The notes under the pieces were generated by a model. It saw nothing but the letters and a program-made list of their open reading frames with translations, had not been told where the DNA came from and ran no database searches. From an uncultured Flavobacteriaceae bacterium (GTDB lineage Bacteria > Bacteroidota > Bacteroidia > Flavobacteriales > Flavobacteriaceae): a stretch of DNA of 64,000 nucleotides. Position numbers and translations under genes: made by a program. The stretch's first letter is position 1. Every line of letters begins with the position of its first letter. Below, piece after piece: positions 34,415-57,962 of this stretch. Location: assembly GCA_963974245.1 (NCBI GenBank), contig CAXBBY010000014.1, positions 5,881-69,880 of the forward strand. The letters run 5' to 3'.

Positions 34415-36823
34415 ATGAAAGTATGTATTGCTGAGAAACCAAGTGTAGCAAGAGAAATCGCTAACATATTGGGTGCCAATACAAAACGAGATGGTTATTT
34501 TGAAGGAAACGGGTATGCAGTTACCTACACTTTTGGTCATTTGTGTACACTTTTAGAACCTAAAGATTACAAACCACATTGGAAAAGTTGGGATTTAAAC
34601 AATTTACCAATGCTTCCAGAAAAGTTTGAAACAAAAGTAACAAGCAATGATGGCATTCAAAAACAGTTCAATATTGTTAAATCGTTGTTTGACAAAGCAA
34701 CTGTTGTTATCAATTGTGGAGATGCTGGTCAAGAAGGAGAATTGATTCAACGTTGGGTTATCAATCAATGTAATTACAAAGGAAAAGTACAACGCCTTTG
34801 GATTTCTTCCTTAACAGAAGAAGCTATCAAAGAAGGATTTAAAAATTTACAACCTTCAGAGAAATACGACAATCTCTATTATGCTGGGTTTTCTAGAGCC
34901 ATTGGAGATTGGCTGTTAGGCTTAAATGCAACACGCTTATTTACTGTAAAATTCGGCGGATATAAGCAAGTTTTATCTGTTGGTAGAGTTCAAACTCCAA
35001 CCTTGGCAATGTTGGTAAATCGATTTAAAGAAATTGAAAATTTTAAGCCACAACCATATTGGGAATTACAAACTACGTACAGAAATACATTATTTAATTA
35101 TGAAGACGGACGCTTTTTAAAACAAGAAGACGGACAAGTATTAGCGAATAAAGTAAAAGAAGCTGATTTCGAAATTGTTTCTGTCACCAAAAAGAAGGGA
35201 AAAGAATACGCACCAAAATTATTTGATTTAACAGGATTGCAAGTCTATTGTAATAATAAATTTGGTTTTTCTGCGGATGAAACCTTGAAAATGGTGCAGA
35301 AGCTATACGAAATGAAAGTAGTTACCTATCCAAGAGTTGATACTACTTTTTTACCAAATGATGTATATCCAAAAATTGAAGGAATATTAGGTAAACTAAC
35401 CAATTACAGTAAATTAACACAACCTCTTTTAGGAAAAAAAATAAAGAAATCGAAACGAGTTTTTGATGATAAAAAAGTAACCGATCACCACGCTATCATT
35501 CCAACCGGAATACAAACCAACTTGCAATACAATCAGCAACAAGTGTATGATATTATTACCAGAAGATTTATTGGCGTGTTTTATCCAGATTCTGATGTTT
35601 CTAATACTTCCATAATTGGTAAAGCTGCGGATGTTCCTTTTAAAACCACAGGAAAAGAAATCATCACCAAAGGATGGCGTGTTGTTTTTGATACTTCGGC
35701 TACGCTCAGCACAAGTTCAGAAAGTAACATAAAAAAGGAATTAAATGTACAAATGACGTTGCCTTCTTTTGTAAAAGGAGAAAAAGGACCACACGAGCCA
35801 TCTTTCTTAGAAAAAGAAACAAAACCACCTAGAAATTTTACCGAGGCTTCTCTCCTACGCGCTATGGAAACTGCTGGTAAACAAGTGGATGATGATGAAA
35901 TGCGCGAGTTAATGAAAGAAAACGGAATTGGAAGACCATCAACAAGAGCAAGTATTATTGAAACCTTATTTCGTAGAAAATATATTGAGCGTAAAAAAAA
36001 GCTAGTTATTCCAACACAAACGGGAATTCAATTGATTGATTTAATAGATAATGAATTGTTGAAATCTGCCGAACTAACTGGACGCTGGGAAAAACGTTTA
36101 AAAGAAATTGAGCGCGGAGAATTCAATGCAGGAACCTTTATCAACAACATGAAAAAAATGGTAGATGAATTGGTGTATGAAGTACGTTCTAATACTTCTA
36201 AAATTAGAATTTCTCATGAAACCGCTGTCATTCCGAACGCAAGTGAGGAATCTCCCAAAAAGAAAGAATCTTCTCAATCAAAATCGAAAAACAAAAAACA
36301 AGTCACAGGTAAAACCTGTCCAAAATGTAATAACGGAAAGTTATTAAAAGGATCAAAAGCTTTTGGTTGTTCTGAATACAATAAAACGTGCGATTTTTTA
36401 ATGCCTTTTGAATTCTTAGGAAAAAAGATTTCAGAAAATCAGTTGATTCGTTTGCTAGACAAAAAATCAACTACAAACCTAAAAGGATTTAAAACAGAAA
36501 AAGGTACTGTTGAAGGTTTGATTCGTTTTGATGAAAATTTCAAATTCAAACTAGAAGAAAAAAAACAAACTGTCATTGCGAATAAAATGAAGCAATCTGT
36601 TCATGCAAATGAGATTACTTCGTCGAAAACTCCTCGTAATGACACTGATAAAATTACTTGCCCAAAATGTAAAAAAGGAACTGTTTTAAAAGGGAAAACT
36701 GCTTATGGTTGTTCTGAGTACAAAACTGATTGTGATTTTGTTTTTACATTTGAAAACATCAAAAAAATAGCAAACGGAAAACCATTGACCAAAGAATTGG
36801 TTATTCATATATTAAATAATTAA
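34415..36823 (+). CDS. topB: DNA topoisomerase III with C-terminal Zn-ribbon repeats, containing three in-frame palindromic inserts
   Basis: IAEKPS TOPRIM, DAGQEGE, GRVQTPTL, VTYPRVD catalytic Tyr, GIGRPSTRA; CPKC..GCSEY repeats. Confidence 0.93.
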   Translation: MKVCIAEKPSVAREIANILGANTKRDGYFEGNGYAVTYTFGHLCTLLEPKDYKPHWKSWDLNNLPMLPEKFETKVTSNDGIQKQFNIVKSLFDKATVVINCGDAGQEGELIQRWVINQCNYKGKVQRLWISSLTEEAIKEGFKNLQPSEKYDNLYYAGFSRAIGDWLLGLNATRLFTVKFGGYKQVLSVGRVQTPTLAMLVNRFKEIENFKPQPYWELQTTYRNTLFNYEDGRFLKQEDGQVLANKVKEADFEIVSVTKKKGKEYAPKLFDLTGLQVYCNNKFGFSADETLKMVQKLYEMKVVTYPRVDTTFLPNDVYPKIEGILGKLTNYSKLTQPLLGKKIKKSKRVFDDKKVTDHHAIIPTGIQTNLQYNQQQVYDIITRRFIGVFYPDSDVSNTSIIGKAADVPFKTTGKEIITKGWRVVFDTSATLSTSSESNIKKELNVQMTLPSFVKGEKGPHEPSFLEKETKPPRNFTEASLLRAMETAGKQVDDDEMRELMKENGIGRPSTRASIIETLFRRKYIERKKKLVIPTQTGIQLIDLIDNELLKSAELTGRWEKRLKEIERGEFNAGTFINNMKKMVDELVYEVRSNTSKIRISHETAVIPNASEESPKKKESSQSKSKNKKQVTGKTCPKCNNGKLLKGSKAFGCSEYNKTCDFLMPFEFLGKKISENQLIRLLDKKSTTNLKGFKTEKGTVEGLIRFDENFKFKLEEKKQTVIANKMKQSVHANEITSSKTPRNDTDKITCPKCKKGTVLKGKTAYGCSEYKTDCDFVFTFENIKKIANGKPLTKELVIHILNN
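35693..35716 (+). repeat. 24-bp REP-like unit in frame in topB
   Basis: ACTTCGGCTACGCTCAGCACAAGT (reads TSATLSTS); matches TTCGAC-TACGCTCA units at 47809, 53189 and 57917. Confidence 0.75.
36227..36253 (+). repeat. 27-bp GTCATT-type half element in frame in topB
   Basis: GTCATTCCGAACGCAAGTGAGGAATCT (VIPNASEES); internal ATTCC/GGAAT inverted repeat. Confidence 0.65.
36572..36643 (+). repeat. 72-bp double-hairpin REP-like element in frame in topB
   Basis: GTCATTGCGA...TCGTAATGAC termini, inner GAAGCAATCT/AGATTACTTC; aligns without gaps to 52752-52823. Confidence 0.85.
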
Positions 36824-36837
36824 ATTAGTCAATACAA

Positions 36838-36951
36838 GTCATAGAAATGACAAAAAAGGTGTCATTTCGACGATAGGAGAAATCTTACAATTTTCAGTTA
36901 CTATCATTCATAAGATTCTTCAATCGTTTTTCAAACTCATTTCAGAATGAC
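36838..36951. repeat. Intergenic GTCATT-type element(s) between convergent topB and VF530 gene
   Basis: GTCATTTCGA (36861)...TCAGAATGAC (36951), inner GAGAAATCTT/AAGATTCTTC; preceded by mini GTCAT-AGAA-ATGAC. Confidence 0.75.
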
Positions 36952-36955
36952 AAAA

Positions 36956-37174
36956 TTACTTTATTGATTTTAAATATAATTTTTCAACCTTTTCTCTAGC
37001 CCAAGGCGTTCTTCTCAAAAATTTTAAACTCGATTTCATTGTCGGATTATTTCGAAAACAATTAATATCAATCATTTCTCCCATTTCCTCCCAACCATAT
37101 TTGTTGTGTAAACGTTCTAAAATATCAGCAAGTTTAATTCCGTGTAACGGATTATTCGGTTGTTCTTCAATCAT
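36956..37174 (-). CDS. VF530/DUF2132-family small DNA-binding protein
   Basis: QPNNPLHGIKL..IL..L...YGW.......INCF..NP...SSLKFLRRTPWAREKVE. Confidence 0.85.
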   Translation of the reverse strand: MIEEQPNNPLHGIKLADILERLHNKYGWEEMGEMIDINCFRNNPTMKSSLKFLRRTPWAREKVEKLYLKSIK

Positions 37175-37300
37175 AAACTGGGCAAATTATGGAAACAAAA
37201 ATACTATTTATTTACTCCTTTTGAATAATCCTAAATTAATATTTATTTTTCCTTCAATTTTCAATACTTTAGCTGCATCAAAATAAACAACTTAATTAGA

Positions 37301-38386
37301 ATGAAAAACACTGCACTAACTCACGTACACGAAGCTTTAAATGCTAAAATTGTCCCTTTTGCTGGTTATAATATGCCAGTATCTTATGAAGGAATAAACA
37401 TTGAACATGAAACTGTTAGAAAAGGTGTTGGTGTTTTTGATGTAAGTCATATGGGTGAGTTTTTAGTAACAGGAGAAAATGCGTTGGCATTAATTCAGAA
37501 AGTTACTTCTAACGATGCTTCTAAACTAGAAATTGGTGATGCACAATACAGTTGTTTCCCAAATGAAGATGGCGGGATTGTAGATGATTTAATTTGTTAC
37601 CGAATAAAAGAAAATCAGTATTTATTGGTAGTAAATGCTTCAAATATTGATAAAGATTGGAACTGGATTTCTAAATACAATACTGAGTTTAAAGCGGATT
37701 TGAAAAACATTTCTGATGACTATTCTTTATTAGCTATTCAAGGACCAAAAGCTATTGAAGCAATGCAATCGTTGACTTCTATTAATTTGGCTGAAATTCC
37801 TTTTTACAAATTTAAAATTGGAGATTTTGCGGGTGTAGAACACGCCATTATTTCTGCAACAGGTTATACCGGTTCTGGTGGATTTGAAATCTATGTAAAA
37901 AACGAAGCTGCTGAAAGTGTATGGAATAAAGTTTTTGAAGCTGGTGCTAATTTAGGAATCAAACCTATCGGTTTAGCAGCAAGAGATACGTTGCGTTTAG
38001 AAATGGGGTATTGTTTATATGGCAATGATATTAACGATACAACTTCGCCAATTGAAGCAGGTTTAGGTTGGATTACCAAGTTTACAAAAGACTTTGTGAA
38101 TTCAGAAAATTTATTAACGCAAAAAGAAACTGGTGTTACTCGTAAGTTGGTTGCTTTTGAATTGACTGAACGTGGAATTCCAAGACAAGATTATCCAATT
38201 GTTGATGGGGAAGGAAATGTAATCGGAATTGTAACATCTGGAACGATGAGCCCATCTTTAGGAAAAGGAATCGGAATGGGTTATGTTACTAAAGAAAATG
38301 CAAAAAGAGATACAGAAATATGTATTCAAGTTCGTAAAAAAGCAATTCCTGCGAAAGTGGTAAAGTTGCCTTTTTACAAAGGATAA
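37301..38386 (+). CDS. gcvT: Glycine cleavage aminomethyltransferase T
   Basis: [36 protein letters not shown]. Confidence 0.95.
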
Positions 38387-38388
38387 AG

Positions 38389-38922
38389 TTAATATTGTGT
38401 TGCTTTTTTTGCCATTTCTGGTTTAAAAAAAGATTGAAAGTATTCAAAATCTTTTTCTTTATCATCTGTTGTATAATAGGGTTCAGAAATTTTTACTTGC
38501 TTATTTTTATAATCTAAGGTTGCCATCACAATTGGCACCTTTGCTCCTTTTGCGATATAATAAAATCCTGTTTTCCACTTTTCTACTTTCTTCCGTGTTC
38601 CTTCTGGTGATAAAGCCAATCTAAACTCTTCTTTAGAATTAAAAACTTTGATGATTGCATCTACCAAATTATTACTTTCTGATCTATTTACTGGTGTACC
38701 GCCCAAACTTCTAAAAATAAAACCAAACGGACCTTTAAATAAAGAGTCTTTACCAATAAAATTAATTTTTATTCCTGCAGTGTTTCTTGCTAAAATCCCG
38801 ATAGGAAAATCTTGCCAACTAGTATGTGGCGCTGCTATAATTACATATTTTTTGATGCCTCTAGGAAAATCGTTTACTAGTTTCCATCCAAAGATTGTTT
38901 TAAAAATAAATTTTGAAATCAT
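38389..38922 (-). CDS. PlsC-family acyltransferase
   Basis: APHTSWQD (HxxxxD), SPEGTR. Confidence 0.85.
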   Translation of the reverse strand: MISKFIFKTIFGWKLVNDFPRGIKKYVIIAAPHTSWQDFPIGILARNTAGIKINFIGKDSLFKGPFGFIFRSLGGTPVNRSESNNLVDAIIKVFNSKEEFRLALSPEGTRKKVEKWKTGFYYIAKGAKVPIVMATLDYKNKQVKISEPYYTTDDKEKDFEYFQSFFKPEMAKKATQY

Positions 38923-39019
38923 AAAACAGTATTAAGTTTACAAATAAAAGACATATTATGATGTACACAAATATAAAACTCTTAATTTTATATTCTCTTT
39001 AATTTATGTTATAAAAACT

Positions 39020-40288
39020 ATGGAAATCTTATTTATTATTGTTGGAATTGTTATTGGTTTAGCCTTAGGCTATTTTGTTTCAAAAACAAAATCAGTAAAA
39101 GAAATTTCTGCTTTAAAAGAGAGAAATCGCAATTCAGAAAACACGAATCAAGAATTAATAGCAATAAGAAAAGAAAAAGAAGAATTGACTATTTTGATTA
39201 CCGAAAAATCTTCTGAAGCTTCTCATTTGCAAGAAAAACTTAAAGAAAACAAACAAGAAGTAGAAAAACTTCAAGAAAAATTCACCAAAGAGTTTGAGAA
39301 TTTAGCCAATAAGATTTTAGAAAGCAATTCAAAGAAATTTAAAGAGCAAAATAAAGAAAGCCTTGAAGGAATTTTAAACCCATTGCAAAAACAAATAACT
39401 GATTTTAAACAAAAAGTTGAAGATGTTAACAAAGATAGCATAAGGCAATCTTCTGCATTAAAACAACAATTAGAAGAATTAAATAAAAATAATATTAAAA
39501 TTAGTCAAGAAGCAATTAACCTAACTAAAGCTTTAAAAGGAGATAATAAAACGCAAGGAAATTGGGGTGAGTTAGTTTTAGAAACTGTTTTAGAAAAATC
39601 TGGTCTCGAAAAAGGAAGAGAGTATGAAATTCAACAGAGCTTTTTAAATGAAGAAGGTAAAAGGTTGTTACCAGATGTTGTAATTAATTTACCTGGAAAT
39701 AAAAAAATGGTTATTGATTCAAAAGTTTCTTTAATAGCTTACGAACAATATATTAATACAGAGAACAAAGAAGAAAAAAAGAGGTTTTTATCAGGCCACA
39801 TTGCATCTATTAAAAGACATATAAATGATCTTAATTCAAAAAAATATGAAGATATTTATAAAATTGAATCACCTGATTTTATTTTAATGTTTATACCTAT
39901 CGAATCTGCACTCTATCTTGCTCAAAATGAAGATAAAAACTTTTTTTATACTGCTTTTCACAAAAACATATTATTGGTCAGCCCAACAACTTTACTGTCA
40001 ACATTGAGAACTATTGATACATTATGGAGTAATGAAAAACAACAACAAAACGCATTTGAAATTGCAAAGCATGCAACTTCTTTATATGAAAAATTTAAAA
40101 ACTTGTTAGATGATCTAGAGACTGTTGGAAATAGAATAAAGTCAACATCCTCAGCTTATGAAGGCGCTATGAAAAAGCTAACGGGAAATCAAAATTTAAT
40201 TAAAGATATTACAAAGCTTAAAGAATTAGGTATTGCTCCCAAAAAAGATATTAATCAAAAATGGATAGATAAAACAACAGAAGAATAA
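39020..40288 (+). CDS. rmuC: DNA recombination protein RmuC
   Basis: N-terminal TM and coiled coil, QGNWGEL.LE, PDVVINLP, IDSKVSL, PDF..MF.P.E, SPTTLL. Confidence 0.92.
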   Translation: MEILFIIVGIVIGLALGYFVSKTKSVKEISALKERNRNSENTNQELIAIRKEKEELTILITEKSSEASHLQEKLKENKQEVEKLQEKFTKEFENLANKILESNSKKFKEQNKESLEGILNPLQKQITDFKQKVEDVNKDSIRQSSALKQQLEELNKNNIKISQEAINLTKALKGDNKTQGNWGELVLETVLEKSGLEKGREYEIQQSFLNEEGKRLLPDVVINLPGNKKMVIDSKVSLIAYEQYINTENKEEKKRFLSGHIASIKRHINDLNSKKYEDIYKIESPDFILMFIPIESALYLAQNEDKNFFYTAFHKNILLVSPTTLLSTLRTIDTLWSNEKQQQNAFEIAKHATSLYEKFKNLLDDLETVGNRIKSTSSAYEGAMKKLTGNQNLIKDITKLKELGIAPKKDINQKWIDKTTEE

Positions 40289-41470
40289 CTAAAACAACTT
40301 CGTTACTTTTCTATCTCTCTTAATAAAATAGTATTTAGCATCTTTTATTACTTTTTTGCGATACCCAAATAAATGAAATATTTCTGTTGCTAAAAATCGA
40401 GCTGTTTTAGGATTTACAATCAAAATATGTTTGTTACTTTTATCTTGCTGTATTCCAGGTAAGCTTCTTAATAAATAATGCATTTTTAATCGTCTAACTA
40501 ATGTTGACAAAACCAACCATTTTTTAGAAATTAAAGAAATAATAAAAAAACCATCCTCACCTTGTTTTTGATATAATGGCATAAATATTTTCCCAGAATG
40601 TGCTGCCCTTATTTTTTTTGAATTGCTAATTGCTAATTCTTGACCTTTTACAACACTTTCAAAATTACTAAAACCAAAAAGCATTTCAAATTGTTCGTTT
40701 TTACTAATTTCATACTTGTAATTTATCTCGTAAAATTCTTGTTTTTCTTTATATAATGATAAAACATGTTGGTAATAGCTAAGTTTTTTTATCTCTAATT
40801 CATTCACACAACCCGAAGCTTTTAGAGCTAACCAAATAAAAGCCTCACAGTTATCTACAGAAGATTCTTTATAATGCTCACCTGCTTCAAAACCTAATGA
40901 TATATGTCCAAATTCATTAATAAATGTTAATAATGGACCGTCTAAATATTCTTCAATTCCTAATATTGTGGGTATTGAAAAGTTTGATGAAAATTCTCTA
41001 TTATTTAATGAATCGCTAATGGTAATAAACGGGCTTGTATCTGAAGAAGTTGTATGTAAATCAATAAAATAAAATGGTCCTTTATCCTTTTTTACTATTT
41101 CTTTAATTTGCTTGTATATTTCTTGCTGTTCAAAACTTTCTTTATATATGTTCTTGTTAAAATCATCAATTATTTGAATCTTTTTTGCAGACCAAATTCT
41201 GTTTAAGTCTATATCTTCAAAACGGATATTTTTTTGCAATGCATTTATATTTCCGCTTATAGCATAAAAATTTCCTAGAAAAGGAATTTTTTCTTTTTCT
41301 ATAGTCTTTAAAACTTTAATTAGTGCATAAACACCAGCTCTTTCGTTACCGTGAATTCCACCAAAACAAATTACTGTTGGTGCATTTTTTGTTCCTTGTA
41401 TAGAACCTAAAACTCTTTTAATGGTTATTTTTTCATCAAAAGCATTAATACGCACTTCTTGTAAACTCAT
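40289..41470 (-). CDS. Succinylglutamate desuccinylase/aspartoacylase-family Zn hydrolase
   Basis: GGIHGNE, DLNR, DLHTT, GFEAG. Confidence 0.85.
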   Translation of the reverse strand: MSLQEVRINAFDEKITIKRVLGSIQGTKNAPTVICFGGIHGNERAGVYALIKVLKTIEKEKIPFLGNFYAISGNINALQKNIRFEDIDLNRIWSAKKIQIIDDFNKNIYKESFEQQEIYKQIKEIVKKDKGPFYFIDLHTTSSDTSPFITISDSLNNREFSSNFSIPTILGIEEYLDGPLLTFINEFGHISLGFEAGEHYKESSVDNCEAFIWLALKASGCVNELEIKKLSYYQHVLSLYKEKQEFYEINYKYEISKNEQFEMLFGFSNFESVVKGQELAISNSKKIRAAHSGKIFMPLYQKQGEDGFFIISLISKKWLVLSTLVRRLKMHYLLRSLPGIQQDKSNKHILIVNPKTARFLATEIFHLFGYRKKVIKDAKYYFIKRDRKVTKLF

Positions 41471-43357: not shown

Positions 43358-43463
43358 ACCTCTATTTTAAAACTTGTTACGCTAAGTACTAAAATAGTTG
43401 GCAAATTAAATATGATAAATATCAGTAGTAGAACAGTTTAAAAAAAGATATACTTTTTATAAC

Positions 43464-44702: not shown

Positions 44703-44730
44703 TGTTGGTTGTTTTTTATAGTATATGTTT

Positions 44731-45006
44731 CCTCGATCTTGCCTTGCCGGCAGGTGCAGTTGAGAGGCAATTGTTAAGCAATTACAAATATAGGAATAGT
44801 AAAAATTCTCGACTGGGCTAGATTAGATATTTTTAATGAATACAAAACAATAAATCAGCCAATCGGCTGCTTTTTTAGTTTACAAGTATGTTTTCATTTC
44901 TAATTCATCTAAATGTCTGGTCGAACTTGTCCTATCGAGCGCAGTCTAATTTGTCATATCGAGCGCAGTCGAGTTACAAGACCTCATAACACTTCTCGAG
45001 GAGACA
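44731..45006. repeat. Cluster of REP-like units between glyA and the antiporter gene
   Basis: 24-bp tandem TTGTCCTATCGAGCGCAGTCTAAT / TTGTCATATCGAGCGCAGTCGAGT (44927-44974); opposite-facing degenerate copy TTCTCGACTGGGCTAG (44806); CCTCGA..GCAGTTGAGAGG with nested TGCCGGCA (44731-44767). Confidence 0.75.
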
Positions 45007-45016
45007 ATCTTATAGT

Positions 45017-46291
45017 TTACATAACAAACAATCTTCTTGCGCTCATCATCTCTTCTACTCGCTCTCCAATTCCTGATAAAGCTTCGTCATTATTGTGATT
45101 CTGAATAGCTTCATCTATAAAATTTACAATGGTTTGCATGTCTGCTGCTTTTAATCCTCTTGTGGTTACAGCTGCAGTTCCAACTCTTATCCCAGAAGTT
45201 ACAAACGGACTTTTATCATCAAAAGGAACCATGTTCTTGTTTACGGTAATATCTGCTTTCCCCAATGCAATCTCTGCATCTTTACCAGAAATGTTTTTGT
45301 TACGCATGTCAATCAACATCATATGATTGTCTGTTCCACCAGAAATAATATCATATCCTTTTGCTACCAATGCTGCTGCCATTGCCGCTGCATTTTCTTT
45401 TACTTGTAATTGATATTCTAAAAACTCATCGGTCAATGCTTCTCCAAAAGCAACTGCTTTGGCAGCAATTACGTGTTCTAATGGGCCACCTTGATTTCCA
45501 GGAAATACCGCCGAGTTAATTAAAGTGGACATCTTTTTAGGTTTTCCGCTTTTTAAGGTTTCTCCAAAAGGATTGTCAAAATCTTTTCCAATTAGTATCA
45601 TTCCTCCTCTTGGTCCACGCAATGTTTTGTGTGTTGTTGTTGTTACAATATGACAATGAGGTAATGGATCATTTAAAATTCCTTTAGCAATCAACCCTGC
45701 AGGATGCGAAATATCTGCCATTAAAATAGCACCCACACTATCTGCAATTTTTCTAAAACGTTTAAAATCAATATCTCTAGAATACGCTGAAGCGCCCGCA
45801 ATAATTAACTTTGGTTGCTCTTTGGTTGCTGTTTCTTGTATTTTATCATAATTTAAGACTCCGGTTTCTTTTTCTACTCCATAAAAAGAAGTCGTGTATA
45901 ATTTACCCGAAAAATTTACTGGAGAACCATGTGTTAAATGTCCGCCATGCGATAAATCGAATCCTAAGATTTTATCTCCTGGTTTTAAACAAGCAGCATA
46001 CACTGCCGTATTTGCTTGACTTCCAGAATGTGGTTGCACATTTACATATTCAGCACCAAACAATTCTTTGGCTCTATCAATAGCAATTTGCTCAACTACA
46101 TCAACAATTTCACATCCGCCGTAATAGCGTTTTCCTGGATATCCTTCTGCATATTTATTGGTTAACACCGAGCCTTGAGCTTGCATTACTTGATCGCTTA
46201 CAAAGTTTTCTGAAGCAATTAATTCTAGTCCGTTTTGTTGTCTTTCCTTTTCTTCTTGAATCAGGTCAAAAATTTGATTATCTAGTTGCAT
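45017..46291 (-). CDS. glyA: Serine hydroxymethyltransferase
   Basis: [44 protein letters not shown]. Confidence 0.97.
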
Positions 46292-46328
46292 TGTTGTTTG
46301 TTTAAATAAAGCTTTATTAAAAGATTCT

Positions 46329-46377
46329 CAAAAGTAGTAAAAATCATTTTGCAACTAACAACTTTCTACTATATTTG
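46329..46377. promoter_or_regulatory. Divergent sigma70 -7 boxes for glyA and fahA
   Basis: CAAAAGTA (minus-strand TACTTTTG) at 46329-46336; TATATTTG at 46370-46377 with TTTG at 46348-46351. Confidence 0.6.
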
Positions 46378-46426
46378 ATAAAAAATTAATAACATTGGTT
46401 AAAACCCAATACATAGATAAATTCAG

Positions 46427-47716
46427 ATGAAATTAACTGCAAATAACCCCAATAGAAAATCGTGGCTTGATGTTTCTAAAGATTCAGATTTCCCAATTCA
46501 AAATATACCTTTTGGTGTATTTATTACCAAAGACGATATTATTACCATCGGAACACGGATTGGAGATTACGCTATCGATTTAGGTGCATTGCATCAATTA
46601 GGATACTTTGAAGGCATACCACTTACAGATGATATCTTTTTACAGGATTCTTTAAATGATTTTATTGCAGACGGACGCAAAACATGGCGTTTGGTACGTA
46701 ACAGAATTGCAGATATTTTTGATGTTACCAAAAGTGGTTTAAGAGACCATAAAGAACACAAAGCAGAAATCATTTTTAGAATGGATGATATTGAAATGTT
46801 ATTGCCTGTAACTGTTGGTGATTACACAGATTTCTATGCAAGTAAAGAACACGCAACCAATGTAGGTACTTTATTCCGTGATCCAGAAAATGCATTGATG
46901 CCTAACTGGTTACACGTACCTATTGGATATCATGGTAGAAGTTCTTCTATCATTCCATCTGGAACACCTATTAGAAGACCTTACGGACAATCGAAACCTG
47001 CAGAAGGAAGCACAGTGCCAACTTTTGGTCCTTCGCGTTTGTTAGATTTCGAATTAGAAATGGCGTTTATTACTACAGATTCTAATACCTTAGGAGATCG
47101 TATTTCTATTGAAGAAGCAGAAGAATATATCTTCGGTATGGTGTTGTTTAACGACTGGTCTGCAAGAGACATACAAGGATGGGAATACCAACCTTTAGGT
47201 CCGTTTTTAGGAAAAAACTTTGCATCAACCATTTCTCCTTGGATTGTTACTTTGGATGCTTTAGAACCTTTTAGAACTGATAATCCGAAGCAAGTGCACG
47301 AACCTTTACCTTATTTACAAGTAGAAGGACAAAAAAGTTACGATATTAAATTACAAGTGGGTATTAAACCAGACGGAAAAGAAGAAACGGTAGTTGCCAA
47401 TTCTAACTTTAAATATATGTATTGGACGATGGTCCAACAATTGGCGCATCATACCATAAATGGTTGTCCGGTTGAAGCTGGAGATATGATGGGTTCTGGT
47501 ACTATTTCTGGCCCTACAAAAGACAGTTATGGTTCTATGCTAGAGTTGTCTTGGGCAGGACAAAAACCAATCAAATTAAACGACGGTTCTGAACGTAAAT
47601 TCATCAATGATAATGATACGGTAATAATGCGTGCACATTGTAAAAATGATGAGCGTAGAATTGGTTTTGGAGAATGTACTGGTAAAGTATTGCCTGCAAT
47701 ACCTTTTAAGAAATAG
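46427..47716 (+). CDS. fahA: Fumarylacetoacetase
   Basis: DFPIQNIPFGVF, GDYTDFYAS.EHA.NVG, YHGRSSS, LDFELE, NDWSARDIQ.WEY.PLGPF.GK. Confidence 0.93.
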   Translation: MKLTANNPNRKSWLDVSKDSDFPIQNIPFGVFITKDDIITIGTRIGDYAIDLGALHQLGYFEGIPLTDDIFLQDSLNDFIADGRKTWRLVRNRIADIFDVTKSGLRDHKEHKAEIIFRMDDIEMLLPVTVGDYTDFYASKEHATNVGTLFRDPENALMPNWLHVPIGYHGRSSSIIPSGTPIRRPYGQSKPAEGSTVPTFGPSRLLDFELEMAFITTDSNTLGDRISIEEAEEYIFGMVLFNDWSARDIQGWEYQPLGPFLGKNFASTISPWIVTLDALEPFRTDNPKQVHEPLPYLQVEGQKSYDIKLQVGIKPDGKEETVVANSNFKYMYWTMVQQLAHHTINGCPVEAGDMMGSGTISGPTKDSYGSMLELSWAGQKPIKLNDGSERKFINDNDTVIMRAHCKNDERRIGFGECTGKVLPAIPFKK

Positions 47717-47739
47717 TGTTTAAAACACTTTCAAATATT

Positions 47740-47773
47740 AAAAAAGGACGCTCTTGGAGTGTCCTTTTTTTTT
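47740..47773. terminator. Bidirectional intrinsic terminator
   Basis: AAAAAAGGACGCTC-TTG-GAGTGTCCTTTTTTTTT. Confidence 0.85.
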
Positions 47774-47795
47774 GTTCTACCCTATTTTATCTTAG

Positions 47796-47845
47796 TTTCA
47801 TTCCTGCCTTTCGACTTCGCTCAAGATAAACTCTGGCAGGAATCT
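47796..47845. repeat. Nested REP-like elements
   Basis: ATTCCTGCC (47800-47808) / GGCAGGAAT (47835-47843) inverted repeat encloses the unit TTTCGACTTCGCTCAAGATAAACT. Confidence 0.75.
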
Positions 47846-47961
47846 TATCAACAAAATAGTAAAACTTATTTTAGCTCTTATTCTTTTCCATTGATGAAAA
47901 GAACCAAAAATCTAGTCTTATTATAATTTTATCGAATTCTAAAAAGTTATTCCACTATCGC

Positions 47962-48012
47962 GTCCAGACATTTTATTTAGTTCCCCAATCAAGTTGAGGA
48001 CATGCTTTGGAC
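47962..48012. repeat. Degenerate nested hairpin element
   Basis: GTCCA...TGGAC enclosing TCCCCAA-TCAAG-TTGAGGA. Confidence 0.4.
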
Positions 48013-48118
48013 ACTTAGCCGTTTCATAGAAATCAAATTCTTACAAAAAACAAAATAGGTCGGTTTCAGATTGTTACTTTACTTCTTTATCCATTAATTT
48101 TTTGTTGTTTATTTGGAT

Positions 48119-50995
48119 TTACCCAGTCATTCCTGTAATAAATACATCAATGTACTTTTTCATTTTCAACAAGATTCTTTCTCCAATTTCACGTGCTTTT
48201 AAAATACTTGGTCTATTGTCTAAACATTTAAAAACATCTTGTCTAATGGGTTCTTGACCATTATACACATAACTTTCTATTAAAGAATTGAATTGTTGTT
48301 GGTCTAGATTCTCTTCTTTACAAATCTTTGATAATGCAATTACTTTTTGTTGCTGCCAATATTTCTCAAATTCATCTGGTATGGCATCTACATCACTAAT
48401 ATTTGGTAGATTTTCTTCTATAAATTTTTCTATCAGTTCTCGTTTACTTCTTAATTTTACTTCACCTCCCAATAAATCAATAATTGCTTTTTTCTGTTTG
48501 GCAGCTTCAGATTTGTCTGTAGTTTTTAATCTGGCTAATAATTGTAATATATAAACTACATTAATTTGGTCTCTATGAATTAATTCTAACTCAAAATCGA
48601 TATCATTTAAAATAGATGTTTTTTGAGCAGGATTGTTAACTTTTATAGTCTCGTATAAATCTAAATATTTGCTTTTATAATCTTCAAAAGTTTGTTCGTC
48701 TATGCCTACATCTTCCCAATTAAAATCTACATAAGATTCTAGTACGTTTTTAGTTCTTAGAACTCTTCTAAAAGCTTGTACAAAAGCTAATTGCTGCTCC
48801 TCTCCTAGCAAATCATCTACACTTTTATAGGTGGGTGTAATGGTTAATAAAGTTTCTAAAGCTTCATCAAATTTAGTAGCAATACTGTCATAAGGTGGAA
48901 TTATAATAGATTCGTTGGCATCTTTATTAGAAAATAAGGTAATGGCATCATCTGTAGCCTTTTTTAAGTTTCTAAAACATAAAATATTCCCTTGCGATTT
49001 CTTTTCTCCTAAAATTCTATTGGTTCTAGAAAATGCCTGAATTAAACCATGTTGTTTTAAATTCTTATCTACATACAAGGTATTTACTTTCTTTGCATCA
49101 AAACCAGTCAACATCATATTTACAACGATAACAATGTCTAAACGGTCTTTAGCATCGTTAAAATTGGCTTTTTCTCTGTCTTTTAAACGTTTGCTTATAT
49201 TCTTAAAGTAATTCTCAAACTGTTTACTATCTTTTGTCGAAAAGCTAGTATTGTACATTTTGTTATAATCTGCAATAAAAGCATCTAGTTTTTCTCTTGA
49301 ATGACTTGATGTGTAGTTGGTATCACTTTCAGCAGCTACATTAAATTCATCATCATCTGGTAAATGATCTTGTGCATCTTCATCTGCTTCATTGGCTCCA
49401 TAAGAAAAAATGGTAGCAATTCTTAAATTGTGTTCTCCTTTTAGTTTTTTCTCTTGAAAAATATCATAATACTTAATCAAGGTTTTTATATTGGAAACTG
49501 CAAATAAAGCTGAGTATTCTTTATTAAACGTTTTTTGACCATGATAGGCAATAATATAATCTGCAATTTTATTTAATCTTCTTTCATCAGCAAATACTTC
49601 TGCTTTATCTATATCTTCTACTTCAATATCTAGTAAGGTTCTGCCTTTTTGTTTGTATCTACCAATGTATTCGATTCCGAATTTTAAAACATTATCATCT
49701 GCAATGGCATCTGTAATTACATATTTATGTAAACAGTCGCCAAACAAATCTTTAGTGGTTCTTTTTCCTAAATCGTTTTTAGAGGCGTTGTCTGCAAAAA
49801 TGGGAGTTCCTGTAAAACCGAATAATTGACTATTGGTAAAATAATCGGTTATTTTATTGTGCGTATCTCCAAACTGACTTCTATGGCATTCGTCAAAAAT
49901 AAGTACCACTCGCCTATTCTTTAAACCCGCTAATTTCTTGTCATATTGATTTTTAGAAATCGCATTATTTAGTTTTTGTATGGTGGTTAACACCAATTTA
50001 GAATCGTCTGCCAATTGTTTAACCAAACTGTTTGTATTATTGGTAACATCTACACTATCTTTTTTAAAAGAATTAAATTCTTTCATGGTTTGGTAGTCTA
50101 AATCTTTTCTATCTACCACAAACAACACTTTATCTACAGTGGGCAAATCCATAATAATCTGACTTGCTTTAAAAGAAGTTAGCGTTTTACCAGAACCTGT
50201 TGTATGCCATATATATGCGTTGTCTGTATTGTTTTGTACTTGTGCCACCAACTTTTCTACGGCATAAAATTGATACGGTCTTAACACCATTAATATTTTA
50301 TGTGTTTCGCTTCTTACAATATACTTGGCAATCATTAACCCTAAATGATCTGGATGTAGAAAAGCAGCAGTAAAATGGGTGAGTTCTTTTATGTTTTTAT
50401 TGTGTACATCAGACCAGAAAAACGTTTGTTTTACAGATTGTAAAGCATTGTTTGCTAAATACTTTGTATTTACGCCGTTACTAATTACAAACAACTGTAC
50501 GTATTGAAACAATCCATGATTAGACCAAAAAGAATGTCTTTGATACCTATTAATTTGGTTAAATGCTTCTTTAATTTCTAAACCTCTACGTTTTAACTCT
50601 ATTTGTACCAATGGCAAACCATTAACTAACAACGTAACGTCGTATCTGTTTTTGTAAGTACCTTCTTGTGCTATTTGGTTAGTGACTTGAAACAAATTAG
50701 CATTCCAATCTTCACTATTAAAAAAACGAATATAAGTAGCTTCTCCGTTATCATTTACAAACTGAAAACGACCTCTTAACGTTTTAGACTTTTCAAACAC
50801 ATTGCCTTTTGCTAAATGGTTTAAAATAGTTTCAAACTCTTTATCTGAAAACGTAAGTTGATTAAATTGCTCTAATTGACTTTTTAAATTAGCAACCAAT
50901 GCAGAACCATCTATTACCGTTACTTTTTTATAACCTAAACCAACTAATTGTTTTATTAGGTTGTTTTCTAGTTGAAGTTCTGATTGTTTTGACAT
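48119..50995 (-). CDS. hsdR: Type I restriction endonuclease subunit R
   Basis: YD...NGLPLVQIELK (PD-ExK), HTTGSGKT Walker A, DECHRSQFG, FTGTP, MLTGFDA, QAFSRTNR. Confidence 0.95.
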   Translation of the reverse strand: MSKQSELQLENNLIKQLVGLGYKKVTVIDGSALVANLKSQLEQFNQLTFSDKEFETILNHLAKGNVFEKSKTLRGRFQFVNDNGEATYIRFFNSEDWNANLFQVTNQIAQEGTYKNRYDVTLLVNGLPLVQIELKRRGLEIKEAFNQINRYQRHSFWSNHGLFQYVQLFVISNGVNTKYLANNALQSVKQTFFWSDVHNKNIKELTHFTAAFLHPDHLGLMIAKYIVRSETHKILMVLRPYQFYAVEKLVAQVQNNTDNAYIWHTTGSGKTLTSFKASQIIMDLPTVDKVLFVVDRKDLDYQTMKEFNSFKKDSVDVTNNTNSLVKQLADDSKLVLTTIQKLNNAISKNQYDKKLAGLKNRRVVLIFDECHRSQFGDTHNKITDYFTNSQLFGFTGTPIFADNASKNDLGKRTTKDLFGDCLHKYVITDAIADDNVLKFGIEYIGRYKQKGRTLLDIEVEDIDKAEVFADERRLNKIADYIIAYHGQKTFNKEYSALFAVSNIKTLIKYYDIFQEKKLKGEHNLRIATIFSYGANEADEDAQDHLPDDDEFNVAAESDTNYTSSHSREKLDAFIADYNKMYNTSFSTKDSKQFENYFKNISKRLKDREKANFNDAKDRLDIVIVVNMMLTGFDAKKVNTLYVDKNLKQHGLIQAFSRTNRILGEKKSQGNILCFRNLKKATDDAITLFSNKDANESIIIPPYDSIATKFDEALETLLTITPTYKSVDDLLGEEQQLAFVQAFRRVLRTKNVLESYVDFNWEDVGIDEQTFEDYKSKYLDLYETIKVNNPAQKTSILNDIDFELELIHRDQINVVYILQLLARLKTTDKSEAAKQKKAIIDLLGGEVKLRSKRELIEKFIEENLPNISDVDAIPDEFEKYWQQQKVIALSKICKEENLDQQQFNSLIESYVYNGQEPIRQDVFKCLDNRPSILKAREIGERILLKMKKYIDVFITGMTG

Positions 50996-50998
50996 AAC

Positions 50999-51547
50999 TT
51001 AATTTCTATCAAATATTTTTAATTCTAATTCAGCTAAAGATAAATCTTTAAATTCTTTTAGATGGTCTGTAATTAATTTAGCCTTATTAATTACTTTTCT
51101 ATAATGTGTATCATCTTCAAATTGAGTCCAAGGCAATAATGTTAAAGAATCTAATTTATTGTCTTTTAATATTTTAATTATTTTCTCTTGTATAATTCTA
51201 TCTACAGGAAAATGTGGTGGTCTAGGTATTTCTTTTAAACACCATAAATATTTTAAATAAAGATTGATTAGTTTTTGAGCAATTCCAAAATTAATAGGAA
51301 TACAGTTCCCTTCAATTGTTAGGTTATTACTGAACTTAACCAATTCTTTAATGGTTTCTATATGTTGCTCCTCCTCTACTTTTTGATAATATTTCTCTTT
51401 TATAAAACTTTCTACTTTTTCTCTTAATGCTTTTCTAAAATCAGTCCTAATTTTCTCTGAATAGTTTTCTTTATAAATATTTGCACGTTGAAAAGCTCCA
51501 CCAAAAGTGAGTATCCAAATTTCATTATTTAAAAATTCTTTTTTCAT
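50999..51547 (-). CDS. Accessory protein inside the type I R-M operon; candidate HhH-GPD/AGOG-like DNA glycosylase
   Basis: ATG at 51547 (or TTG 51568 overlapping hsdS); stop 3 nt before hsdR. Motif FGIAQKLINLYLKYLW...PPHFPVDRII. The function call is an inference. Confidence 0.55.
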   Translation of the reverse strand: MKKEFLNNEIWILTFGGAFQRANIYKENYSEKIRTDFRKALREKVESFIKEKYYQKVEEEQHIETIKELVKFSNNLTIEGNCIPINFGIAQKLINLYLKYLWCLKEIPRPPHFPVDRIIQEKIIKILKDNKLDSLTLLPWTQFEDDTHYRKVINKAKLITDHLKEFKDLSLAELELKIFDRN

Positions 51548-51560
51548 AGCTTCTATTTTA

Positions 51561-52865
51561 TTAAACAAATAGCTGCTGCAACAAGCCTTTTTTAAACGCT
51601 TGTGTTTTTTCTAATTGTGTTTGTGCATTTTCTATTTTAGTATCAATAGCATTTAAATATTTAGCTATTTTTCTTCTTTCTATTTCACATGGTAATGGAA
51701 TTGGCATTTTAAAAAAATCAGAATTAGAAATATTCATTCTGTCATGTCTGGCACCAAAATTTGCTACACTATTTAAATATTTGTGCCATTCAACAGTTTC
51801 AAAATAAAATTCAAAATATTCTAAATTCTCTTTGTTAAAACTAAATACTAAATATAAAGGAGACATGATTCCTTTTATTAATTTGTTTCTCTTTATTGGA
51901 CCAACAGGAGCATGAACTGAAATTCTTGGGTTATAAATAAAATCATCTTTTTGAACAATATAATACCCTTCTAAATTGTTTTGATTTGCAATATCTCTAT
52001 CAAAATACTCCTTTTGACTAACAATTCCTTGAGTTGCAGAATTAGTTAGCACAAAATTAATTTTACTTCCTTTATTTTTGATAGAGTTTCTTTTAGCAAT
52101 CTTATCTAAAGTTTTTATTTCCCAATCAGGAAAATCTAAACCATCATCATTTTTAAAACGCAATTGCTGACTAAACAATTGTTGCATGACTCCTTTTTTG
52201 TAGTTTTCTAAGTATTCCTTTTTAGTGGTTAGTTGTTGTATTTTTGTATCTACTGCTGTTAAAAATGTGGCTATTTTTTGTTGTTCTGGAAGATTGGGCT
52301 TTGAAAATTTTGTCCTATTAATAATACTATTATAAAGTCTTTGAATAGTTCCTCCTTCCGAATCATATTTTACAATTTGATAAATGTAAAACAAAAATGA
52401 GTTTGTAATTAACTCTTCATTATTATCAATCCAAACTATATTAGAATCTTGAAAATAAGCTTCAACACCATCATAAACAACAGTTCTTCCTAAAGTTCCT
52501 GATGCTGACATCAATATATCACCTATTTTAGGAAATGAAAACCTTTCTCTATAGTTTTTATAAAGTTTTTTAGTTATAAATGCATCAGGCTTTTTACCAA
52601 AAGTTCCTATTTTGTAAAAAGGTATATCTCCAGTTTCGGTAGTTTCACTGCTGAAAATTCTCTTACACATTTTAACTTTTCCAATGTCTCCTAATTTTTT
52701 CTTTTCCCATTCACCCTCAAACTCATTAAAACGAAGTTTGGGTACACGTACGTCATTGCGAAGCTTTTTTGCTGAAGCAATCTCTTTTTTATTGGCAGAT
52801 TGCTTCACTCCGTTCGCAATGACGGTTTGTTTAGCAATTACGTTATTTTTGTTTTCTGCTGTCAT
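51561..52865 (-). CDS. hsdS: Type I R-M specificity subunit
   Basis: PKLRF..F..EWE, two TRDs, P.L.EQQKIA.FL..VD.KI spacer, KKG.MQQLF repeats; TAATG overlap with hsdM. Confidence 0.93.
   Translation of the reverse strand: MTAENKNNVIAKQTVIANGVKQSANKKEIASAKKLRNDVRVPKLRFNEFEGEWEKKKLGDIGKVKMCKRIFSSETTETGDIPFYKIGTFGKKPDAFITKKLYKNYRERFSFPKIGDILMSASGTLGRTVVYDGVEAYFQDSNIVWIDNNEELITNSFLFYIYQIVKYDSEGGTIQRLYNSIINRTKFSKPNLPEQQKIATFLTAVDTKIQQLTTKKEYLENYKKGVMQQLFSQQLRFKNDDGLDFPDWEIKTLDKIAKRNSIKNKGSKINFVLTNSATQGIVSQKEYFDRDIANQNNLEGYYIVQKDDFIYNPRISVHAPVGPIKRNKLIKGIMSPLYLVFSFNKENLEYFEFYFETVEWHKYLNSVANFGARHDRMNISNSDFFKMPIPLPCEIERRKIAKYLNAIDTKIENAQTQLEKTQAFKKGLLQQLFV
52752..52823 (-). repeat. 72-bp double-hairpin REP-like element in frame in the hsdS N-terminus
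   Basis: Perfect 10-bp termini GTCATTGCGA/TCGCAATGAC and perfect inner GAAGCAATCT/AGATTGCTTC; encodes VIANGVKQSANKKEIASAKKLRND. Confidence 0.88.
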
Positions 52866-54439
52866 TAAAAAGGAGTTTCAATATTTAACTGTTTGCAAAA
52901 ATCTTCAATGATTGTATCTGTATCCGCAATTTCTTTTTCTAATGCTTTTAAATCTTTAGAAACACTTAAAAGGTCTATGGCTTCTTCTTCTTCAAACGTA
53001 TCTACATAACGTGGTATGTTTAAATTGTAATCGTTTTCTTTTACTTCCTCTAAAGAAGCAACATAACTATATTTGTCTTTGGTTTCTCTTGTTCTGTAAG
53101 TATCTATAATTTCTTGTAAATGCGCATCTGTTAATACATTTTGCGTTTTTACTTTGTCAAAATGATTGCTGGCATCAATAAATAAAATATTTCGACTACG
53201 CTCAATATGACGGCTTCTGTCTTTTTTTAATACCAATATGCAAGTAGGAATACTTGTCCCAAAAAAGATGTTAGCAGGCAAACCAATAACGGCATCTAAT
53301 TGGTTTTTATCTTCAATTAAATACTTTCTAATATGTCCTTCTGCTGCACCTCTAAACAAAACACCATGTGGTAACACACAGGCCATGGTTCCGTTTTCAT
53401 CTAACTGATGAATCATGTGTTGTACAAAGGCAAAATCTGCTTTACTTTTTGGTGCCATTTTTCCATAAGGAGAAAAACGCTCGTCACTAATAATCGCATC
53501 AGGATTCCAATTCGCAGAAAAAGGCGGATTTGCAACAATGGCTTCAAAACGTTGGTCTATATGTTTTGGTGAAGGATTTACTAAGGTGTCTTCATTATAA
53601 ATATCGAATTTTTTATAATGTACATCGTGCATAATCATATTCATTCTACACAAGTTGTACGTAGTTGGGTTGCTTTCTTGTCCGTAAAAACCACCAACCT
53701 CTTTTACTTCTTTAGAAACTCTTAATAGTAAAGAACCAGAACCACACGTTGGGTCATACACAGATTTTAAACGCTCTTTATCTGTAGTTACAATTTGTGC
53801 TAATATTTTAGAAACTTGTTGCGGCGTATAAAATTCGCCTGCTTTTTTTCCTGCTCCAGAAGCAAACTGACCAATTAAATATTCATAGGCATCCCCTAAT
53901 ACATCATTTTCATTGTTTTCTAAATCAAAATCAATGCCTTCTAAATGCGTTAATACTTTTACAATCAGTTCGTTTTTGGCTTCTTCTGTTTTACCTAGCT
54001 TACTACTTGTTAAATCTAAATCTTCAAAAAGGTTTCCAAAATCATCTTCACTTTCACTTCCCATAGTGCTTTGCTCTATGTTGGTCAGCACTTTTTGTAA
54101 ATCTTCTAAAATGAATTTATTTGTTCCGCCAGAATTACCTCTTTTGGCTAATTCGCTAAATAGTTCTGTAGGTTTTAAGAAATACCCTAAGGCATCTAAA
54201 GCATCTAGTTTTATTTCTTCTAATAACAAAGCTTCACTTTCATGACCAATAACTTGGGAATATTCTAAACCATCTGGTTTTAAAATAATGTTAGCATGTA
54301 GAGACATTTTTTTACTTAAATACTTGTAAAAGATAAAGCCTAGTATATAATCTCTAAAATCATCCGCATCCATATTACCTCTTAAATCGTTGGCAATATT
54401 CCATAAAGTTTGATGCAATTGTAGTTGATTTTCTGACAT
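52865..54439 (-). CDS. hsdM: Type I R-M N6-adenine methyltransferase subunit M
   Basis: LWNIANDLRG, GEFYTP, YDPTCGSGSLL, NPPFS, PHGVLFRG, YNLNIPRYV; likely start MSENQ (54439). Confidence 0.95.
   Translation of the reverse strand: MSENQLQLHQTLWNIANDLRGNMDADDFRDYILGFIFYKYLSKKMSLHANIILKPDGLEYSQVIGHESEALLLEEIKLDALDALGYFLKPTELFSELAKRGNSGGTNKFILEDLQKVLTNIEQSTMGSESEDDFGNLFEDLDLTSSKLGKTEEAKNELIVKVLTHLEGIDFDLENNENDVLGDAYEYLIGQFASGAGKKAGEFYTPQQVSKILAQIVTTDKERLKSVYDPTCGSGSLLLRVSKEVKEVGGFYGQESNPTTYNLCRMNMIMHDVHYKKFDIYNEDTLVNPSPKHIDQRFEAIVANPPFSANWNPDAIISDERFSPYGKMAPKSKADFAFVQHMIHQLDENGTMACVLPHGVLFRGAAEGHIRKYLIEDKNQLDAVIGLPANIFFGTSIPTCILVLKKDRSRHIERSRNILFIDASNHFDKVKTQNVLTDAHLQEIIDTYRTRETKDKYSYVASLEEVKENDYNLNIPRYVDTFEEEEAIDLLSVSKDLKALEKEIADTDTIIEDFCKQLNIETPF
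53189..53211 (-). repeat. REP-like unit in frame in hsdM
   Basis: Coding strand GTCATATTGAGCGTAGTCGAAAT (RHIERSRN); 18/21 identical to the intergenic unit at 44953-44973. Confidence 0.8.
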
Positions 54440-57916: not shown

Positions 57917-57941
57917 CCTTTCAACTCCGCTCAAGGAGACA
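57917..57941 (+). repeat. REP-like unit after clpB
   Basis: CCTTTCAACTCCGCTCAAGGAGACA resembles CCTTTCGACTTCGCTCAAGATAAAC at 47807. Confidence 0.65.
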
Positions 57942-57962
57942 TTTAAAGGTTTAATTAACTTG

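Follow-up and report, generated by a model that had tools for sequence, protein, structure and literature searches.

The window analyzed here is a 64,000-nt stretch of one contig (C14:5881–69880) from the genome of an uncultured Flavobacteriaceae bacterium (2.58 Mb, 30% G+C, 30 contigs). It includes topB, encoding DNA topoisomerase III, and the adjoining genes hsdM and hsdS, in which the hsdS start codon overlaps the hsdM stop codon (TAATG). Five short palindromic units lie within these three genes and are read in frame with them, and relatives of them are found intergenically in the same window (Table 1). All five peptides and the DNA units encoding them were located where an initial annotation, made from the sequence of the window alone, had placed them, apart from the end of the unit encoding RHIERSRN (53212, not 53211), and the intergenic relatives that it mentioned were also recovered. 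These five coding motifs are, with a probability of about 85%, copies of multicopy short hairpin repeats that have landed in frame in genes and that belong to the superfamily of CGTC-tagged repetitive extragenic palindromic (REP) sequences, as defined by Di Nocera, De Gregorio and Rocco (2013, BMC Genomics 14:522; PMC3733652).

Table 1. Genes and repeat units discussed in the text. Positions are those of the window unless a contig is named; repeat families are defined in the text.
Feature	Position	Strand	Remarks
topB, DNA topoisomerase III, 802 aa	34415..36823	+	Pfam Toprim, Topoisom_bac, Toprim_Crpt; NCBIfam TIGR01056 and NF005829 above cut-off
Decayed family-C single ACTTGTGCTGAGCGTAGCCGAAGT	35693..35716	-	antisense reading gives TopB residues 427-434, TSATLSTS
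Family-B single GTCATTCCGAACGCAAGTGAGGAATCT	36227..36253	+	TopB residues 605-613, VIPNASEES
Family-A head-to-head dimer, 72 nt, VIANKMKQSVHANEITSSKTPRND	36572..36643	+	TopB residues 720-743
Family-E single GTCATTTCGACGATAGGAGAAA	36861..36882	+	intergenic, 38 nt past topB stop codon
Two adjacent family-C units	44928..44985	+	intergenic
Family-C-like unit	47811..47831	-	intergenic
hsdS, 434 aa	51561..52865	-	Pfam Methylase_S
Family-A head-to-head dimer, 72 nt, VIANGVKQSANKKEIASAKKLRND	52752..52823	read on -	HsdS residues 15-38
hsdM, 540 aa	52865..54487	-	Pfam N6_Mtase and HsdM_N; TIGR00497 above cut-off
Family-C single CGTCATATTGAGCGTAGTCGAAAT	53189..53212	-	HsdM residues 426-433, RHIERSRN
Family-C unit	57921..57944	-	intergenic
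GIY-YIG pseudogene	C12:54255		between two family-F units
GIY-YIG gene, 115 aa	C9:90857-91204		between inverted GGTGGCTGAGCGTAGTCGAAGCCA units (family-C subtype)
RAYT-like gene, 189 aa	C1:214035-214604		NF047646 E = 1e-12 (below cut-off); Pfam Y1_Tnp E = 3e-4

Repeat units in topB, hsdS, and hsdM

Three of the units are in topB. The first is in a variable loop of the topoisomerase core, at a site where most TopB orthologs are shorter by 7 codons, and its own core (GAGCGTAGCCGA) has one mismatch to that of family C. The second is in the linker preceding the first zinc ribbon and shows the full architecture, with a GTC tag, an ATTCC/GGAAT stem, and GA...GA; in congeners this linker contains other repeat families, or none. 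The third, a 72-nt dimer, is in the linker between the C-terminal zinc-ribbon repeats. These placements in loops and linkers are based on Pfam boundaries and alignments. The HsdS dimer, with GTCATTGCGA at each end, is in the N-terminal leader, ahead of a conserved VPKLRFxEF motif, while the HsdM unit occupies a loop flanked by the conserved strands ILVLKK and ILFIDAS.

As the initial annotation had noted, the two 72-nt elements align without gaps, with 14 of 24 residues identical, and both are preceded by AAACAAAC(T/C); at the DNA level, 54 of 72 bases are identical. The AAACAAAC(T/C) motif was considered as a part of the element and rejected, as no such conserved motif is found upstream of other family-A copies. 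No in-frame start codon was found between the HsdS dimer and the VPKLRFxEF motif, so this element is probably translated. Coding copies in general would be translated as extra peptide segments of 8–24 residues.

Repeat families and predicted folding

A generic direct-repeat finder run over the whole window missed the elements, which were recovered by motif searching. In the literature, full-text matches to the DNA strings were limited to primers that matched by chance. A loose pattern for long-loop hairpins was dropped, with 58 matches in shuffled sequence against 186, and core-motif counts were used instead; families were defined from listings of all GTCATT[GC]CGA sites and all GAGCGNAGTCGA sites. 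The units follow a common plan, in which an unpaired (C/T)GTC tag is followed by a 5-nt stem, then GA, a loop, GA again, and the complementary stem. A GTC start is found in every unit of families A, B, D, E, and F and in most of those in family C, and the base before it is usually T or C. The canonical single is 24 nt long, the exact length of 72 of 112 short units; head-to-head dimers measure about 70 nt. Family A (GTCATT[GA]CGA) has 63 units, family B (GTCATTCCGA) 10, family C (a GAGCGNAGTCGA loop with variable stems, one mismatch allowed) 116, family D (GTCAGTTCGAG) 34, family E (GTCATTTCGA) 22, and family F (GTCATTCCC-N8-GGGAATC, also given as GTCATTCCCGTGAAAACGGGAATC) about 10. Stems in families A–E are 5 bp long (ATTGC, ATTCC, or ATTTC; variable in C), with loops of 8–12 nt or more; family F alone is near the published geometry, with a 6-bp stem starting with AT and an 8-nt loop.

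The stems covary. In family A, stem position 4 is a G..C pair in 39 cases, an A..T pair in 20, and mixed in none; in family C, 37 distinct stems surround the fixed 12-nt loop, and 84% of stem positions are paired, against 56% with shuffled partners. The 72-nt elements had been described as double hairpins. The local 5-bp stems are indeed conserved by covariation, but each element as a whole is predicted to fold as one long imperfect hairpin, as a head-to-head dimer would (HsdS dimer, -18.3 kcal/mol, z = -5.8; TopB dimer, -8.5 kcal/mol, z = -1.9). The motifs are far more frequent than chance would give: GTCATTGCGA occurs 41 times in this 30% GC genome, where roughly 2 occurrences would be expected (our own arithmetic from base composition), and the A-unit pattern has 38 matches against 0 for a reversed control pattern.

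Composites of about 150 nt were also seen (C9:89700–89900, C16:500–620, C1:277400–277560, and others), in which a family-D and a family-C unit are combined with an inverted pair, TTGTATCGAGAAC...GTTCTCGATACAA. On both strands together, the 11-mer TGTATCGAGAA has 42 occurrences. The composites look like larger structures built from these same blocks and resembling MITEs (miniature inverted-repeat transposable elements).

Genome-wide distribution and host genes

Genes were predicted with our own open reading frame (ORF) and codon-usage caller; it returned 2259 genes, with 91.5% of the sequence coding. In the whole genome, about 245 family A–E units were counted at 176 loci, of which 97 are in unidirectional, 26 in convergent, and 7 in divergent intergenic regions, with 5 at contig ends and 41 genic. 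The repeats are mostly downstream of genes, and are strongly depleted both from coding sequence and from divergent (promoter) regions, which make up 22% of intergenic bases yet have only the seven loci. Among two-unit clusters, head-to-head "+-" pairs are by far the commonest (18 CC and 17 AA).

Coding copies are free of stop codons, a multiple of three in length, and located in variable loops and interdomain linkers. Within genes, eight family-A units in sense orientation read VIA..., and two read SLRGTKQS. The initial annotation had proposed that unit lengths are compatible with the reading frame; this is true of the canonical single, but not of dimers in general. Intergenic family-A dimers range from 68 to 101 nt, with lengths divisible by three in only 5 of 14, while all five coding dimers are 72 nt. 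Because intergenic dimers so often are not multiples of three, the frame filtering appears to be done by selection. Insertion itself would not be frame-aware, and selection would purge the gene-disrupting copies and leave the harmless ones.

Units are found well inside the ORF in 34 genes. Pfam annotation covered 20 of these: PurL, GltX, MetG, DNA polymerase I (PolA), an IcmF-like mutase fusion, a HemN-like radical SAM protein, a MenD-like thiamine pyrophosphate enzyme, an FAD oxidase/Fe-S protein, ThiF, a MobA-like protein, asparaginase, RibD, PyrD, a chorismate-binding enzyme, a GT2 glycosyltransferase, a polysaccharide deacetylase, a pyridine nucleotide-disulfide oxidoreductase, and three proteins without a Pfam match. 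The hosts are mostly metabolic enzymes and aminoacyl-tRNA synthetases. It had been remarked that all coding hits are in DNA-handling enzymes, and within the window they are, but genome-wide this applies to just 4 of the 34 hosts (TopB, HsdS, HsdM, and PolA). Because the hosts are so diverse, the pattern belongs to the window and not to the element, and an exclusive link to DNA enzymes was rejected once the 20 host genes had been annotated.

The three DNA enzymes in the window, with PolA elsewhere, could still be taken to mean that coding copies are kept for a function, whether as cleavage or recognition sites for Ssn-type nucleases that would limit the uptake of these genes by transformation, as flexible linkers, or as mRNA structures tuning the expression of DNA enzymes. 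There are parallels for this: intragenic CGTC REPs are in excess in replication and repair genes, with DNA polymerase I and a DNA methyltransferase among the hosts (Di Nocera et al., 2013), and Chenal et al. (2025, Nat Commun 16:2388; PMC11893778) describe how Neisseria NTS repeats flanking genes lower the integration of those genes by transformation, through SsnA. Such a function nevertheless seems improbable, given the range of hosts just listed, the depletion of the repeats from coding sequence overall, and the comparisons described below, where the inserts are missing from most orthologs and the peptide sequences decay.

Comparison with orthologs

Orthologs of several host proteins were compared in search of empty sites, as the initial annotation had suggested, and inserts in TopB, GltX, HsdM, and HsdS proved to be missing from many or all of the relatives compared. 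The cleanest case of apparent insertion is GltX, where a segment of 22–23 residues (VIASETKQSASNNVITSSKNPRN), positioned exactly between the catalytic and anticodon-binding domains, is missing from 19 of 19 orthologs in nine genera. In HsdM, the closest orthologs in other genera have a related insert (HAERSRS) in the same loop, while those with 80% identity or less have a short loop, e.g., EHPND. Systems related to this HsdS have other REP-like inserts in the leader, and more distant ones start with MQxEKxLVPQLRF, with no insert.

For TopB, 19 orthologs were aligned and a tree was made from columns with few gaps (no more than one each). Most of these orthologs have none of the three segments. 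The three variable regions (one core loop and two linkers) contain units of families A, B, C/D, and E in different congeners, at least six of which have repeat units there: A-type dimers in L007 (in all three regions), L011, and L009; C/D-type units in L005 and L010; and E-type units in L006. In the third region (the last linker), the present genome (L001) has its dimer at a codon position where L007 has an A-type copy that has decayed, and three other congeners have C-, D-, or E-type units. L001 and L007 are not sisters in the tree, and their nearest relatives have no A dimer in this region. The presence of different families in the same regions, together with the separate placement of L001 and L007, favors repeated insertion or turnover at what would be permissive sites, with the same regions of TopB hit or renewed repeatedly in different species.

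Alternatively, the linker hairpins could be old and inherited, with one ancient element per linker that has mostly decayed, some copies being kept near consensus by gene conversion. The matching codon position of the A-type dimers in two species that are not sisters could be explained in this way, as could the HsdM insert common to orthologs of different genera and the finding that the "empty" TopB linkers are not truly empty. This history is unlikely, however, to account for the non-homologous subfamilies (A, B, C/D, and E) found in the same linker across species, for the clean, lineage-specific insertion in GltX, or for copy numbers that range from 0 to 60 among congeners.

Several points weigh against regarding the five coding motifs as hairpin repeats that landed in frame. 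Lone single units are thermodynamically non-significant as hairpins. The gene caller is crude, so that some "genic" units near 5' ends may be upstream of the true start. The "empty" TopB linkers hold about 10 residues, against about 25 in this genome, so simple insertion at a known empty site does not describe them, and some of the TopB events may be old decayed elements or copies renewed by gene conversion. Finally, no GIY-YIG gene of this genome (see below) is bracketed by family A, the family of both 72-nt elements.

Distribution across the Bacteroidota

Of 61 genomes of the genus, 42 contain the A-unit pattern; copy numbers run from 0 to about 60, and the control count is essentially zero (one match in one genome). 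The combined A/B pattern was found in 118 of 251 sampled Bacteroidota genomes, representing 65 of 125 genera, with a maximum of about 230 copies. The family spans the phylum in a patchy manner, as proliferating repeats would be expected to do. It had been proposed as a flavobacterial family of elements; the multicopy family is confirmed, but it is not specific to flavobacteria, and it is part of a cross-phylum superfamily of CGTC REPs and Ssn-related hairpins.

Candidate mobilizing genes

To our knowledge, mobilization of such hairpins has been demonstrated in no system. The window itself has no mobilizer gene, in agreement with the initial annotation, which had suggested looking elsewhere in the genome for a gene encoding a REP-associated tyrosine transposase (RAYT) or a GIY-YIG protein flanked by the same repeats. 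The outcome was mixed: the RAYT-like gene is accompanied by a different REP, but two of the small GIY-YIG genes have related hairpins on both sides.

Just one RAYT-like gene was found, encoding a protein with an HUH-like NHFHLLV motif (locus L023, C1:213400–214700). It is situated amid three copies of a very uniform REP, GACCTCACAGGTTTTTAAAACCTGTGAGGTC, which has about 18 copies genome-wide; its flanks are GACCTCACAGG... hairpins and not families A–F, and the elements studied here do not show the association of GTAG REPs with a RAYT. The existence of this protein and the REPIN-like geometry of the dimers might suggest that the elements are REPINs mobilized by the RAYT of this genome. This is very hard to reconcile with the different REP around the gene and with a tag of GTC rather than GTAG, and for CGTC REPs Di Nocera et al. 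(2013) found neither a dedicated transposase nor a link to RAYTs. With the sole RAYT-like gene carrying its own REP, this hypothesis was rejected. Together, GACCTCACAGGTTTTTAAAACCTGTGAGGTC and the RAYT-like gene look like a classical REP/RAYT pair coexisting with the GTC-tagged families.

There are six small GIY-YIG genes in the genome, two of them lying between inverted GTC-tagged hairpins whose tags point outward (Table 1). In public genomes, for relatives of the C12 type, 34 of 73 loci are bracketed on both sides, compared to 1 of 2259 genes of this genome with the same detector, and homolog loci in other phyla have canonical NTS-like GTCATTCCCGCGAAAGCGGGAATC flanks. The C9 protein matches UPF0213 structures (PDB 1zg2, E = 4e-18) and is 41% identical to the C2-type protein, of which the C12-type protein, judged by eye, is a close paralog. 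At UPF0213-type loci, a family-C core is found 25–45 nt upstream from the start codon at 60 of 75 loci, and an inverted core is also present on the 3' side in 38 of 75. A family-A-like flank was seen at only one distant locus among the GIY-YIG homologs (L127). The GIY-YIG/hairpin bracket was at one point considered as a new mobilizer for "orphan" CGTC REPs; this claim was dropped, the arrangement having been published in 2025 as Ssn/SRM (Chenal et al., 2025).

The most likely mobilizing agent would be a small, single-domain GIY-YIG nuclease of the Ssn/UPF0213 type acting on single-stranded DNA. Since GIY-YIG genes are found between inverted hairpins in this genome and its relatives, the gene-less dimers would be MITE-like derivatives of such hairpin-bracketed genes. 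A more extended proposal can be put forward only tentatively, and is on balance doubtful: that families A–E are a Bacteroidota-wide branch of the Ssn-related hairpins with short stems and large loops, that UPF0213 proteins are the cognate nucleases of the GAGCGNAGTCGA hairpins, and that the repeats are still mobile and reseeding permissive linkers and loops. If so, Bacteroidota proteins would have in them a general source of new linker sequence.

Some features of the small GIY-YIG loci may be mentioned separately. Besides the C9 gene, a GIY-YIG protein is encoded at C2:254336–254620. At C9:89860–91204, the UPF0213-type gene is upstream of a gene for a 335-aa protein without a Pfam match, and at loci L163–L177, in several other genera, the frame starting from the GIY-YIG gene is about 300–313 codons long, as if it continued into the downstream gene. 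A conserved neighborhood of the UPF0213-type gene would fit a resident, domesticated gene better than a freely moving one. Two further small GIY-YIG genes (C7:57291–57500 and C2:149917–150111, one with an internal stop) are between duplicated tRNA gene fragments and appear to have been inserted into tRNA genes, in a homing-like manner.

Relation to known repeats

The repeats described here are of the same broad kind as the Neisseria NTS/dRS3 repeats, Rickettsia palindromic elements (RPE) 4 and 6 (RPE-4/6), and the Ssn-related motifs (SRM). This kind is already known, and no new mechanism is revealed; what is new are the Bacteroidota families with short stems and large loops, which the published SRM pattern misses. 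The present case is of value because its empty sites are clean, because the same TopB regions have been used repeatedly, and because it shows where the published motif definition falls short, and the known phenomenon of palindromic repeats in protein loops is extended to the Bacteroidota with clean comparative evidence.

The picture drawn by the initial annotation, of elements similar to RPE, holds up well: the repeats are multicopy and mostly intergenic, and the coding copies have no stop codons, have lengths divisible by three, and lack a counterpart in orthologs. RPE, as Ogata and colleagues are said to have found in 2000, are palindromic repeats in frame in protein genes, missing in orthologs and compatible with function. 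Elements of the RPE-1 type are 100–150 bp long and would be unrelated in sequence, and their host is an obligate intracellular alphaproteobacterium, unlike the member of the Flavobacteriaceae considered here, with its genome of 2.58 Mb and 30% G+C. The link to RPE runs only through RPE-4/6, which have been equated with CGTC REPs (Di Nocera et al., 2013).

The CGTC REPs themselves have TGTC tag variants, stems starting with AT, head-to-head dimers, a location downstream of genes, and in-frame intragenic singles and dimers of about 8–30 residues (Di Nocera et al., 2013). The present repeats are alike in their CGTC/TGTC tags, hairpins often starting with AT, head-to-head dimers, unidirectional and convergent sites, and in-frame copies, and the published peptides VIPAKAGI and DSRFRGND share reading frames with VIA... 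and ...PRND here. They differ in that the published stems are 8–9 bp with 4–5 nt loops, whereas families A–E have 5-bp stems and GA...GA-framed loops of at least 8 nt; topoisomerase III and HsdS are also absent from the published hosts. Gramella forsetii (Flavobacteriaceae) is named there as a carrier, with no intragenic Bacteroidetes copy given.

Small GIY-YIG Ssn proteins (cd10448) with NTS/SRM hairpin flanks, which cut single-stranded DNA beside these hairpins, are described by Chenal et al. (2025), who raise NTS-ssn-NTS as a domesticated mobile element as an idea only; a keyword search of the main text gave no mention of Bacteroidota or of intragenic copies. The present genome is similar in having GIY-YIG genes between inverted GTC-tagged hairpins, with the same hairpins dispersed, and the fraction of bracketed C12-type loci is close to the 42% given in that paper. 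It is different in that family C is paired with a gene of the UPF0213 type, not demonstrably cd10448, whose nuclease role is putative. The SRM pattern, HGTCWYN(0-2)YYVSBRHN(0-5)WNVSBRGN(0-2)RNCYNB, has 2 matches in the genome and overlaps 0 of 245 family A–E units. As it misses repeats that are common in Bacteroidota, surveys based on it will undercount. With REPINs and RAYTs (Bertels and Rainey, 2011; Nunvar et al., 2010) the repeats share non-autonomous head-to-head dimers and a repeat-flanked, single-copy resident enzyme gene, but the tag is GTC, not GTAG, and the partner is a GIY-YIG nuclease (putative here), not an HUH tyrosine transposase.

For annotation, VIA..KQS, ..PRND, SLRGTKQS, HxERSR, and LDSAR in Bacteroidota proteins should be read as repeat-derived segments and not as conserved motifs, and care is needed with N-terminal extensions that include repeat-derived peptides.

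The hsdM-hsdS junction

A 189-aa ORF without a Pfam match is located between hsdS and hsdR (window positions 50999–51568, - strand). At the other end of hsdS, the junction with hsdM seems to act as a landing site for short repeats in general. In other genera, a different repeat, read as GHxPKGQAITTRY or WARPKGSG, is found at the same junction (loci L034, L036, L037, and L048). VIANQT-type 18-mers are repeated in related hsdS leaders; at locus L047, from another genus, nine tandem 18-nt units encoding VIANQT (GTCATTGCGAACCAAACC-like) are found just upstream of hsdS, and in the present genome one and a half similar units (VIAKQT VIAN) are ahead of the HsdS dimer.

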